Positions 27,001-30,000 of a DNA stretch of 51,464 nucleotides are shown here, in pieces. Position 1 is the stretch's first letter. Every line of letters starts with the position of its first letter. A program made the position numbers. This DNA is from a virus. Taxonomy: Duplodnaviria; Heunggongvirae; Uroviricota; Caudoviricetes. The DNA lies in IMG/VR virus record IMGVR_UViG_646311923_000011. The stretch is one strand, 5' to 3'.

Positions 27001-30000
27001 TACCGGGGCAGGTGGCGTTGATCCGCAGGCGCTTACGACCAGCGGCAACATCAGCGCGCAGAGTTTCATTTTCAGCTCTCGCATCGGCTAATTCCCTCGA
27101 GTATTTTGCATCGAGCGCAGCAACATCGCGCTGGCGCACCTGCATATCAGTAATAGTTGCGTTTGCCAGCTCCAGCTCTCTGGCTTTTTTATCGCGCTGC
27201 GCTTTGTAGGTGATGGCGTTATCGCGGTAATGATTCAGCCCCAGACTAAGCACACCACAGGCTACCAGCAGGACAATAATCACCACACACAGAACACGGT
27301 TCATATCACCACCAACGGATTGCCCAGACCAGAACAGCAATGGCCACAATACGAATGGCAAATGCCATTGCCCGAATAAGTTCAGCACTCATCTTTTTAA
27401 AGTTCACGATTTCAGCGCAATGACCAGTTTTGCCAGCCCATACAGCATCGGAGACACAGCAATACCAACAGCCACCCACTTAATAGCAAAAGCCAGCGCT
27501 CTGCTGATGTCATCAGTCACTGTCACCCCAGCAGCCCCGACGAAGACAACATCACCCAGGCGAGGGACAGAAAAAGAGCAACCAGCATTAGTGAAAATGA
27601 AATACCGACAATCACACACAGGACCTTTGCCGGCGTTATGAGTTTGTCTGACATAGCTACCCCTTAATTGCCACAATTAACTGGGATACTACCCATAAAA
27701 AAGGGATGCTCCAGACCAGCAAAAATTTCCAGTTTGGTAATTGACTAATCATGAGTCGCAACTCCCTAATCAGTTTGCTAAAATCAATCAAGGCAGCCTC
27801 CCATAGCTTACTGCCATAAAAACAAAACCCCGCTTGCTGCCAACAAACGGGGTTTTTACTTTTATTCACTTACGTTTCGCCAGTTCGCAGGATTTCATGT
27901 TATCCGCCCGCGTGGCCATGCCTTATTTTTCAGCAAAATATTCTGCTTATCTGTCGATACCCCAGCACGCCAGCGCGCTCTCCTGGTCACGACGGGATAC
28001 CTGACCGTAGCAGTTGTTTGAACGAATACGGCAATCTCTGCCACCGTCCTTAATCCACCAGCGAATCGCCTCACATGCTCCCCTGCGATCACCAGCATTA
28101 ATTCGTCTGTAAAACGTCGACGGGAAACACTTACCGGGACCAATGTTGTACGGACAGAATGACGCGATCCCCGCTTTCTGGGGTTCGGTCAATGGCACTT
28201 TGATGTTTTTCTCCACCCATGCCAGCGCCTTATCACGCTCAATGGCGTTAACCTGGTCGCATTTCTCCTTCGACAACTTCATGCCCGGGACGACAGGTTT
28301 ACCATCCACCAGAATGGCACCGCGACAGATGGTCCAGATACCCGCGCCATCACGGTATGCCGTGGTGTGGTTACCTTCCTTTTCATCCAGAAACTGGTCG
28401 AGAATGTCAGGCGCAGGCGCACCAGCGGCAATCAGCGCCAGAACGGCAGCCGACAGGCCGTATTTGATTTTGGTGTTCATGGATATTTATCAGGATTTAT
28501 CGGCAACAGATAACGAGCCAGCTTATATACGTCCTTTAAGATAAGTCAGTCCTGGATGAAACCAGTAAGCCGGCACTTTTTTAAAGGGCGGATTATCAAA
28601 ATCACGAAGAAGAGCCTCCCGCACAACTGCATCCTTGTCCGCACCACTGGCCAGCGCTTCAATCTCAGCAGCTATCTGCAGATATCCCATGCAACGACCA
28701 ATGCACTTCATCAGCCCCTGCTTTTTATTGTTCTTCAGGTAATCAATGGCAAATTCAATGAGCTCCTCACTATGCTGGTGCGATGGCGGTGTTACTTTTC
28801 CATTTTCTGAGATGGTTATTTTCCCAGCATCACCGGATACAACAAAGGATGGCCGGTTACACTCCCATTCCAGGTCACTGAAATTATCATTATGAATACT
28901 GAAACACTCTGCGAGATTTCTGCTCATCACTTTCCGGCAATAATCGTAAAACGCAGCAAACTGCTCATCGCGGCGTTTTTTTTCAGGCTGCTGAAGATGC
29001 TCTTTCAACCATGAAGCGCAGCTTAGATTCGCCGCGCGATCAGAAATAGCTTCTTTCATTTCGTCTGCTGCAAGCACCTCATTTTTTGTTGGGGTGCTTT
29101 TTTTCAATTCAGCGATATAGCACTCCAGTTTTTCAATACGCGATTCAACATCATCTTTTTCTGACCGCAGTGTTGACGGCGGCATCTTCAGAGAACAAGT
29201 AATTCTTCCCGGTAGCTTTCCTTTGTAGGTTATCAATACATCCTGCGCATCTAAAATTACGGGGCGCTTTTCCGGTGACGGTTCATCCCCTTCGCATAAC
29301 CCGGCAACAATATCCATGAAAAACTGCTTCGCCTGTTTTTTCGCCTCAGCTTCGTAGAACTCCAGCGTGGCACCTTCAGTACGGTCAAGACTAATCGCCA
29401 CATGTGGCAACAACAACGACGGATGCCCGCCAATTTCAAGTGCCACAGTAACAGCAATCTTATCCGGGTAATTATTTATCTCTTTAACAACCAGTTCGTA
29501 TTTTTTCTTCATCGCTTTAGTCTCCCCGCGCCGTCTTACGGCGGTCCTCCCTGATTTTGAAATACAGGTTAGTCAGATACGTCAGCAGGCCAAACAGCAG
29601 ACTCCCCAGTACACCTATTGCCACCCACTGGGACGGAGAGACTTTGTCCAGCAACTGCAGTAGCCAGTATCCCGTCCCCACCGCTGACGTGGTGTATGAC
29701 ACACCTGTTGTGATTTTTTCCATCCGATGTATGTCTCCGTCACCGCCGACAGAAAATGAAAGTAAAGGAAAACAAAAAGCCGCCAGTGTCACCCACTGAC
29801 GGCCAACGCCGGGAGCCGTGATTATGGCATTCAGGCTCTGCTAAAAATGCCAGATAACATTCCGACCAACCCCTGATTCAGGTTATAAATGACACAATAT
29901 CTTGACAACATCCGTCACTGTCTGTCAGAAAATGTACTGCCAAATATAAGTATCATGTGAAGTACATCTACCCGTTTTAGCCAGCGTCCTTCAGAGTGGG

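Follow-up and report, generated by a model that had tools for sequence, protein, structure and literature searches.

Four small conserved genes for predicted membrane peptides lie between the endolysin and Rz genes of a lambdoid Escherichia coli prophage

We analysed the interval between the endolysin gene R and the spanin gene Rz in a 51,464-nucleotide (nt) stretch of a lambdoid Escherichia coli prophage (Caudoviricetes; IMG/VR record IMGVR_UViG_646311923_000011), hereafter the window. The late and lysis genes of this prophage are on the minus strand throughout. After R and a terminator, the interval consists of four consecutive short, hydrophobic, minus-strand open reading frames (ORFs), numbered here ORF1 to ORF4, which are followed by Rz/Rz1. 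Comparison with relatives shows that, on sequence grounds, these are real, conserved and modular genes. The interpretation that we narrowly prefer is that they are four separate genes for single-pass inner-membrane mini-proteins, which may be late accessory components of lysis. A preliminary description of this DNA had reported a hairpin after the endolysin gene, which a terminator scan bears out, and two short ORFs with good ribosome-binding sites, each encoding one membrane helix. Those two ORFs are real and hydrophobic, but there are four in all, and the last of them (ORF4, 27306–27392) lies beyond the range that had been described.

Each peptide has a single hydrophobic stretch, the predicted helices having 19-residue hydropathy values of 1.9–2.9, and all four match PHROG families annotated as 'unknown function'. 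The sense frame is free of stops and has the lowest ratio of non-synonymous to synonymous polymorphism (pN/pS) of the six frames. An antisense ORF of 73 amino acids (aa; 27420–27641, plus strand) was rejected as a gene, its start not being conserved in Salmonella. The 711 base pairs (bp) around the peptide genes are 100% identical to those of E. coli O55:H7 CB9615 and of 15 or more further complete genomes, and at least 80% of this stretch is present in 584 of 5426 E. coli genomes. Of the earlier proposal, micro membrane proteins co-expressed with the lysis genes, the proteins are supported by PHROG membership, conserved length and purifying selection; co-expression is suggested by position.

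ORF1 and its terminator form a unit found across genera

ORF1 (family A, phrog_6632) spans 27657–27791 on the minus strand and encodes the 44-aa peptide MIDFSKLIRELRLMISQLPNWKFLLVWSIPFLWVVSQLIVAIKG from a TTG at 27791, which stands behind the Shine–Dalgarno (SD) sequence GGGAGG (−10.2 kcal/mol). It had been described as a 31-aa ORF. That start exists, as an in-frame ATG at 27752 behind AGGGAG (−8.4 kcal/mol), but it is the inner start of the longer gene. The 45-aa profile of phrog_6632 matches the long reading over profile positions 2–43 with an E-value of 1.3e-12, compared with 6e-05 for the 31-aa reading, and relatives belonging to other genera conserve the protein sequence of the 13 extra N-terminal codons (IDFSKLIRELRL). 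Relatives of 45 aa were recovered, by an exhaustive HMMER search combined with a genome scan, from Citrobacter, Providencia, Brenneria, Pantoea, Edwardsiella, Trabulsiella, Sodalis and Izhakiella, and an unannotated one occurs in Salmonella phage SPN3UB; of the peptide families, that of ORF1 is conserved in the largest number of genera. Common to all relatives is the motif (I/L)D(F/I/L)SK(L/M)IRELR upstream of the position of ATG 27752. ORF1 conforms to it and to the family layout, in which the motif is followed by an invariant Met14, the residues LPNWKF and one helix. Because the motif is shared upstream of the inner ATG, ORF1 begins at a GTG or TTG, and one or the other is the outer start at all 10 family A loci. 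Pairwise ratios of non-synonymous to synonymous substitution rates (dN/dS) are mostly 0.04–0.3, synonymous sites being saturated, and among the six frames the sense frame scores clearly best.

ORF1 likely yields two nested products, one from the weak TTG/GTG and one from the invariant internal ATG. Met14, the inner start, is invariant in 13 family A proteins, and an equally invariant GGGAG stands 8 nt upstream of its ATG; it is these features, along with a weak outer GTG/TTG behind a strong SD, that make a dual start likely. Codons 9–12 read (A/C)GG GAG TTG CGA at each of the 10 loci, synonymous sites included; codon 13 uses all four third bases. In Stx1a phages only the short form can be encoded. 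A regulatory hairpin at the inner start, comparable to 'sdi' of lambda, is not supported: the consensus fold reaches only −4.4 kcal/mol, covariation is absent and single-sequence z-scores are about 0. The invariant arginine codons 9 and 12 (27767–27765 and 27758–27756) are the rare AGG/CGG and CGA, and the prophage encodes tRNA-Arg(tct) and tRNA-Arg(tcg), which read AGA/AGG and CGA/CGG. This may be coincidence, or the phage tRNAs may be linked to ORF1 expression.

The terminator upstream of ORF1 (27824–27856, minus strand) is an intrinsic-terminator hairpin of 15 pairs with a T run, and T runs are present on both strands. Such a hairpin lies about 35 nt before the ORF1-family gene in 10 of 10 loci from about eight genera. 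Across these loci, 5 of 13 hairpin pairs show compensatory changes, and the sequence further upstream is unrelated. A promoter scan found zero minus-strand promoter-like sites between the terminator and ORF1 or within the peptide array. The genes that surround family A are diverse: the endolysins are T4-lysozyme-like, GH19, GH108 or unclassified, the holins are of the phage-21 or lambda S type, and the spanins are Rz, DUF2514 or LysC-like.

Between the R stop and the hairpin, the window has a conserved untranslated stretch of about 90 nt (27860–27946, minus strand; …CGGGCGGATAACAYGAAATCCTGCGAACTGGC…GTAAGTGAATAAA), which was recognized by alignment with 933W, an Stx1a phage, PhiR5_2 and, in part, Salmonella phage SPN3UB; downstream content differs among them. 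In each relative the stretch runs into a terminator, and it resembles a small RNA derived from a 3′ untranslated region. A 17-codon ORF within the window's copy is not conserved in the relatives, and an Rfam scan of 26000–30000 at E ≤ 1 returned zero matches.

In SPN3UB (NC_019545) two unannotated small hydrophobic ORFs lie between lysozyme and Rz (1686–1802 and 1958–2095 of the extracted locus): a 38-aa ORF that overlaps the lysozyme stop, and a 45-aa ORF1-family gene that ends in IRWW directly before Rz. The latter joins an ORF1 head to an IRWW tail and has the same junction to Rz as ORF4. Annotation of ORF1 is poor. It is unannotated in most genomes, is sometimes given as a 70-aa reading through the terminator, and has no annotated feature in the E. 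coli RefSeq genomes listed for its 891 matches; its TTG start and small size are the likely cause.

ORF2 and ORF3 are separate genes

ORF2 (family B, phrog_4906, 4.5e-21; RefSeq hypothetical protein WP_001280935.1) spans 27523–27654 on the minus strand and encodes MSDKLITPAKVLCVIVGISFSLMLVALFLSLAWVMLSSSGLLG, with an SD energy of −8.4 kcal/mol. The preliminary description had it at 44 aa; the ORF exists, but its length is 43 aa plus a stop. Family length is 43 aa in 42 sequence clusters, longer database entries being upstream-start or frameshift calls. ORF2 fits the family B layout of 43–44 aa, MSDKLI...LCVIVGISFSLMLVA...GL(L/V)G, whose core LCVIVGISFSLMLVA shows strong conservation. Family B is restricted to E. 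coli, and dN/dS is 0.24–0.47 in the more diverged pairs. Phage 933W has an unannotated ORF2 homologue between ant and Rz, and the homologue in phage P27 is annotated.

One member of this family has been seen in ribosome-profiling data. XECs191 of O157:H7 Sakai is the 933W/Sakai-type allele of ORF2 (65% identical to 933W's). In uninduced lysogeny broth cultures its transcriptome value was 30.0 reads per kilobase per million (RPKM) and its translatome value 12.6 RPKM, with a ribosome-coverage value of 0.43 and a coverage of 0.55, and its product was predicted to reside in the inner membrane and to have one helix (PMC5597208). It was published as an isolated 49-aa intergenic ORF, with neither a function nor a link to a lysis cassette (Huecker et al. 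2017, PLoS One, PMC5597208). The footprints are weak independent evidence that the ORF2 family is translated.

ORF3 and ORF4 belong to family C and are paralogues with different tails. ORF3, the KS-tail type (27404–27526, minus strand; about 39–40 aa), begins at a GTG that overlaps the ORF2 stop (GTGA) and matches phrog_1115, phrog_3246 and phrog_4493 with E-values of 6e-25 to 5e-17 (best 6.4e-25). Alternative starts are a GTG at 27520 and the CTG at 27559 chosen by the Prokaryotic Genome Annotation Pipeline (PGAP); the RefSeq protein WP_042004856.1 is accordingly 51 aa long, from a CTG that has no SD. Both GTG starts have weak SDs. The usual length of ORF3 relatives from E. coli and Salmonella is 48 or 60 aa; they have the form (MEKYKRILLRLT)MKNGLELKAPVTDDISRALAFAIKWVAVGIAVSPMLYGLAKLVIALKS, with N termini that read MKNGLELKAP..., and dN/dS in the core is 0.04–0.12 between the two hosts. 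ORF4, the RWW-tail type (27306–27392, minus strand; 28 aa), matches phrog_4493 at 3.8e-06 and is the RefSeq hypothetical protein WP_032140280.1. It has no SD (energy +0.3), and its stop lies 1 nt ahead of the Rz ATG. Its relatives are usually 37 aa long, occur on at least 999 contigs and provide the sole gene between R and Rz in perC-carrying O157 prophages.

Aligned by eye, ORF3 and ORF4 both contain the family C core RA(L/A)AFAI(K/R) and one helix. Both are missing the polar N-terminal segment with its ATG (MKNGLELKAPVTDD... or MKGIEVETPASLDL...); ORF3 starts with a GTG at the VTDD junction, and ORF4 has MSAELI in place of the polar segment. In a Salmonella genome (GCA_042228205.1), tandem family C paralogues of 64 and 55 aa (2305–2668 of the locus) follow a NanS-p-type esterase gene and precede a DUF1353 gene; neither endolysin nor Rz is adjacent to that pair.

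The hydrophobic segment that had been noticed in another frame after ORF2 is real. It is ORF3, a separate gene with its GTG on the ORF2 stop, rather than the second half of ORF2. The preliminary description had raised the possibility that the two are halves of a single membrane protein of about 85 aa with two helices, broken by a frameshift or indel near 27520, and such a reading would be consistent with the way in which they abut in different frames, with a mechanical 90-aa ORF (27404–27676) that overlaps ORF2 and with the 90-aa length of the phrog_3246 profile. We regard it as very improbable. In 42 clusters ORF2 has the same length, 43 aa, and the same terminal ...GL(L/V)G, whatever follows, and it stands directly before Rz in 933W and Stx1a phages; the ORF3 family stands alone in Salmonella and precedes ORF2 both in PhiR5_2/PhiR12 and in a GH108 cassette that is unrelated. 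Homology to ORF3 in tblastn searches begins exactly at V-T-D-D, with none running back into ORF2, and among 69 + 103 clusters there are zero in-frame fusions of ORF2 to the ORF3 core. The fixed end of ORF2, the separate or reversed order of the modules and the lack of a fused form therefore do not fit a remnant of about 85 aa. A sequencing indel at about 27520, which had also been suspected, is excluded because no fewer than 16 independent complete genomes share the 711 bp at 100% identity. There is an oddity at that position, but it is a recombination junction that removes the usual N-terminal segment of the ORF3 family.

Peptide modules are shuffled between endolysin and spanin

Comparison with the R-to-Rz intervals of related prophages, which had been proposed as a check, found protein-coding modules that are under purifying selection and shuffled among relatives. 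Lambdoid prophages of the Enterobacterales carry zero to four of the peptide genes, from three families, which are reshuffled by recombination inside or between helix-coding segments. At least eight distinct architectures occur between endolysin and spanin. DLP12 and Qin have nothing between R and Rz, and lambda is not known to have anything there either. The hairpin is followed by family A and Rz in SPN3UB and Citrobacter braakii, by family C and Rz in Salmonella (as R–60 aa–Rz), by an ORF4-type gene (C′) and Rz in O157 prophages that carry perC, and by C, B and Rz in PhiR5_2 and PhiR12. The order is ant–B–Rz in 933W, 231 aa–A–B–Rz in Stx1a phages, 231 aa–A–B–C–C′–Rz in PhiR5_1 and hairpin–A–B–C–C′–Rz in the window. 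An E. coli prophage in GCA_047883205.1 has a GH108 endolysin followed by 65 aa–C–B–lipoprotein (2307–2961 of the locus). In that cassette two holin-family genes are followed by genes for a 65-aa membrane protein, a 38-aa family C peptide, a 44-aa family B peptide and a 60-aa lipoprotein with the lipobox LVGC; a recognisable i-spanin is absent before terminase.

Hybrid proteins such as P0198 and P0201 combine parts of the modules, for example a family C N terminus on an RWW tail, or the first eight residues of ORF2 on an RWW core. About 16–31% of complete E. coli genomes contain any given module, and a single genome can hold as many as 11 copies of ORF2. The peptide genes had been thought to replace the usual gene between endolysin and Rz. 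They do not: the Ant-like gene of 933W-type Stx phages occupies the same interval, encodes an unrelated soluble protein of 189–231 aa and is an optional insertion, which coexists with an ORF2 homologue in 933W and, as a 231-aa gene, precedes ORF1–ORF4 in PhiR5_1. Counterparts of the peptide genes are absent from the lysis regions of K-12 Qin and DLP12, and the literature on small proteins of K-12 is therefore not applicable.

The peptide genes are embedded in a lysis cassette

The late genes run, on the minus strand, in the order RusA, Q, DNA methyltransferase, three tRNAs, NanS-p-type esterase, holin S, a DUF1327 gene, R, the peptide genes, Rz/Rz1 and terminase. The antiterminator gene Q (34866–35429) is preceded by RusA, and the tRNA genes, for Met, Arg-tcg and Arg-tct, lie at 32944–33193. 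Holin S (29517–29723) is of the phage-21 (class II) type, 68 aa from an internal ATG, and matches Pfam PF04971 (3.5e-32) and PHROG holin families. Its product starts MEKITT... (holin region 29517–29792), and some relatives are annotated as 71 aa. The antiholin form of phage 21 is made from an upstream Met-Lys-Ser start, and the window's holin lacks that start. Inserted between holin and endolysin is a gene for a 329-aa DUF1327 protein (28523–29512; PF07041 8.3e-39, phrog_1085); the corresponding place is taken by a truncated 'YdfR family' pseudogene in O55:H7 CB9615 and by versions of 185–211 aa in other relatives.

Endolysin R (27947–28480), taken from the ORF list, belongs to the T4-lysozyme family, has an Ala/Gly-rich hydrophobic N terminus of the signal-arrest-release (SAR) type and is annotated in identical DNA as the RefSeq 'lysozyme' WP_001092850.1. 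By eye it is about 90% identical to R of 933W, and PF00959 is recorded for the homologous gene. The i-spanin Rz (26810–27304; 164 aa from ATG 27304) matches PF03245 (7.9e-50) and phrog_13 (4.6e-77). Its ribosome-binding region is GGTGGTGA at the end of ORF4 (codons CGT TGG TGG TGA), with an SD energy of −6.2. The o-spanin lipoprotein Rz1 (26899–27084; 61 aa), likewise from the ORF list, is embedded in Rz; relatives have near-identical embedded Rz1 ORFs beside Rz, and PF06085 is recorded for an Rz1 homologue.

What the peptides may do

Our best guess is that the peptides would be accessory membrane components, not essential in themselves, that adjust when or how efficiently the envelope is disrupted. 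Given the gap of about 35 nt between hairpin and ORF1 and the lack of a coding-strand promoter, transcription should need read-through by Q; the genes would be transcribed only by Q-modified RNA polymerase that passes the terminator, late and together with S, R and Rz/Rz1. Tight spacing and overlapping stop and start signals suggest that translation is coupled down to Rz. A membrane protein for which dose and timing matter would be expected to have such weak starts, a terminator upstream and a second start nested within its gene. Position and gene design thus point, tentatively and at somewhat less than even odds, to a role in modulating lysis. A function expressed in the lysogen is a less probable assignment, and what remains falls to the readings in which the ORFs serve only for coupling or are inert.

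A number of observations weigh against the interpretation of four accessory lysis genes. DLP12, Qin and lambda lack any peptide gene, and lysis as such can therefore proceed without the peptides. Searches of holin, Pfam, NCBIfam and PADLOC families (PADLOC at E ≤ 1) gave no match for any of the four. In Pantoea stewartii a hairpin–ORF1 unit (2388–2638 of the locus) stands outside any lysis cassette, flanked by a gpV-like tail-spike gene (PF18352, Apex motif) and the next gene of the baseplate region. The XECs191 footprints are weak and come from uninduced cultures and from a sequence that occurs in several copies per genome. The invariant ORF1 codons (TTG CGA, and AGC AAA at codons 5–6) are not explained by significant RNA structure. 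ORF2 and ORF3 also have an open −1 frame on the antisense strand, with pN/pS only slightly higher than in the sense frame; it is open because its wobble positions are shared with the sense frame. Finally, ORF3 has neither the family N terminus nor a clear start, ORF4 has no SD, and ORF3 is frameshifted in phiSTEC1589.

This last group of observations would be accounted for if only ORF1 and ORF2 were functional and the ORF3 and ORF4 of the window were untranslated or inert scars of recombination in family C. The absence of the polar N-terminal segment from both, a start of ORF3 so ambiguous that annotators chose a CTG or one of two GTGs with weak SDs, the missing SD of ORF4 and the phiSTEC1589 frameshift mean that both copies may be inert, and we consider this a serious though minority possibility. 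Against it, both frames are nearly invariant across 59 full-length copies and undisturbed in 58 of the 59, the GTG of ORF3 on the ORF2 stop is a standard coupling layout, and Rz draws its ribosome-binding region from the end of ORF4. The 59 copies of the window's arrangement, which are near-identical and have three changes in the ORFs, provide too few single-nucleotide polymorphisms to test selection either way. A separate reading, in which the ORFs are mainly translated leaders that couple ribosomes to Rz and the peptide products are irrelevant, appeals to the fact that the final peptide gene always ends 1–4 nt before the Rz start and that the ...IRWW end, whose codons double as the Rz ribosome-binding region, occurs in two unrelated families. 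It is improbable, since purifying selection spans whole helices and not merely their 3′ ends, family A also precedes non-Rz spanins and a baseplate gene, and lambda, DLP12 and Qin translate Rz without a leader ORF.

The peptides could instead be 'moron' functions expressed from the lysogen, such as superinfection exclusion, defence or host fitness, parked beside Rz as bor is in lambda and 933W. The hairpin–ORF1 unit moves between unrelated cassettes and in Pantoea stands among tail genes, high copy number and rapid shuffling would suit an arms-race function, the XECs191 footprints were obtained from uninduced cultures, and bor adjoins Rz in 933W. We nevertheless judge this unlikely. The coding strand has no promoter-like site between terminator and ORF1 or inside the array, the terminator is upstream of the genes whereas in classical morons it is downstream, PADLOC returned zero matches, and spontaneous induction can give footprints in an uninduced culture. 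A further possibility, that one or more of the peptides are type I toxins under the control of an antisense RNA, would start that RNA from the single plus-strand promoter-like match (27648–27677, CTGACA-18-CACAAT) and end it at the hairpin, which has T runs in both directions; small size and hydrophobicity are in keeping with such toxins. It has very little to recommend it. One promoter-like match compares with 2.0 ± 1.5 expected by chance, and both hexamers are inside coding sequence. The −10 hexamer falls on residues that vary among ORF1 alleles (LIVAI/LIIAI/LITAI) and, judged from these protein alleles, should therefore not be conserved. Strong SDs and an operon position are unlike known type I toxins, and coding-strand promoters and Rfam matches are both lacking.

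A broader and more speculative proposal is that family A is an unrecognised and widely conserved component of Enterobacterales lysis cassettes, mostly left out of annotations on account of its size and GTG/TTG start. It would be a 45-aa membrane protein with nested 45- and 31-aa forms and an obligatory terminator, and would set lysis timing whatever the holin, endolysin or spanin; families B and C would be partner modules swapped by recombination within helix-coding DNA. We think this proposal unlikely.

Lysis of Gram-negative hosts by phages is usually described in terms of holin, endolysin and spanin. A survey of lysis cassettes in Stx phages covers only S, R and Rz/Rz1 (PMC8136144), and the peptide genes have therefore not been treated as cassette components. 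Shiga-toxin phages carry these genes, and lysis timing governs toxin release, so that toxin release would be affected if the peptides modulate lysis. Annotation is affected as well: in most genomes RefSeq lacks ORF1, the CTG start of ORF3 is implausible, and the 70-aa and 90-aa readings are artefacts. If, on the other hand, the peptides are inert or unrelated to lysis, they are merely well-catalogued hypothetical genes of prophages. What is already known is that the sequences are common, mostly as hypothetical proteins, and that translation of one homologue, as a small ORF, has been reported. New here are corrected gene models, the way in which the families are structured and shuffled, the cross-genus hairpin–ORF1 unit and the likely dual start, which together make a modest but real lead for specialists in phage lysis.

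Comparison with known systems

The catalogued identities of the peptides are the PHROG families phrog_6632, phrog_4906 and phrog_1115/3246/4493 and the RefSeq proteins WP_001280935.1, WP_042004856.1, WP_032140280.1 and WP_001043230.1. The catalogues mis-size several of them, ORF1 being entered at 70 aa or left unannotated, ORF3 being started at a CTG and phrog_3246 being a mechanical 90-aa reading. Literature searches by accession, PHROG identifier and peptide string found the main texts silent and one homologue in a supplementary table (PMC5597208).

None of the four peptides matches a holin family in Pfam or PHROG, whereas the window's own holin (29517–29723) does. The charged hydrophilic C-terminal domain of holins is also absent, the peptide C termini being KG, SSSGLLG, ALKS and IRWW, and the spanin lipobox [LVI][ASTVI][GAS]C was not found in any of the four; Rz/Rz1 are present separately. 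LysZ was set aside as a comparison, since it concerns corynebacteria and is unrelated.

The closest parallel in gene design is the dual-start holin. Holin and antiholin are made from two starts in lambda (S105/S107) and phage 21 (S68/S71), a device that sets lysis timing. ORF1 is likewise a gene for a small predicted membrane protein in a lysis cassette, with two candidate in-frame starts and a charged N-terminal extension in the longer predicted form. It differs in having one helix, 44 aa and no charged C-terminal tail, and in an extension of 13 residues rather than 2–3.

In terms of role, the nearest counterparts are accessory lysis proteins. Releasin, gp25 of phage Mu, is reportedly a small single-pass membrane protein that, like the next example, serves as an extra lysis factor beside a pinholin and/or SAR endolysin and spanins. 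Lcc6 of the Shewanella phage LambdaSo is a 65-aa single-pass protein that is required for lysis by a pinholin and SAR endolysin (bioRxiv 10.1101/2024.01.23.576932). The peptides resemble both in being small and single-pass and in standing beside a phage-21-type holin and a SAR-type R, an analogy of possible role and not of sequence. Lcc6, at 65 aa, is essential for lysis and has its gene far away from the lysis genes, whereas the peptides have 28–44 aa, are encoded within the cassette and do not occur in many working phages. Lcc6 and Mu releasin show that small membrane proteins can be overlooked players in lysis.

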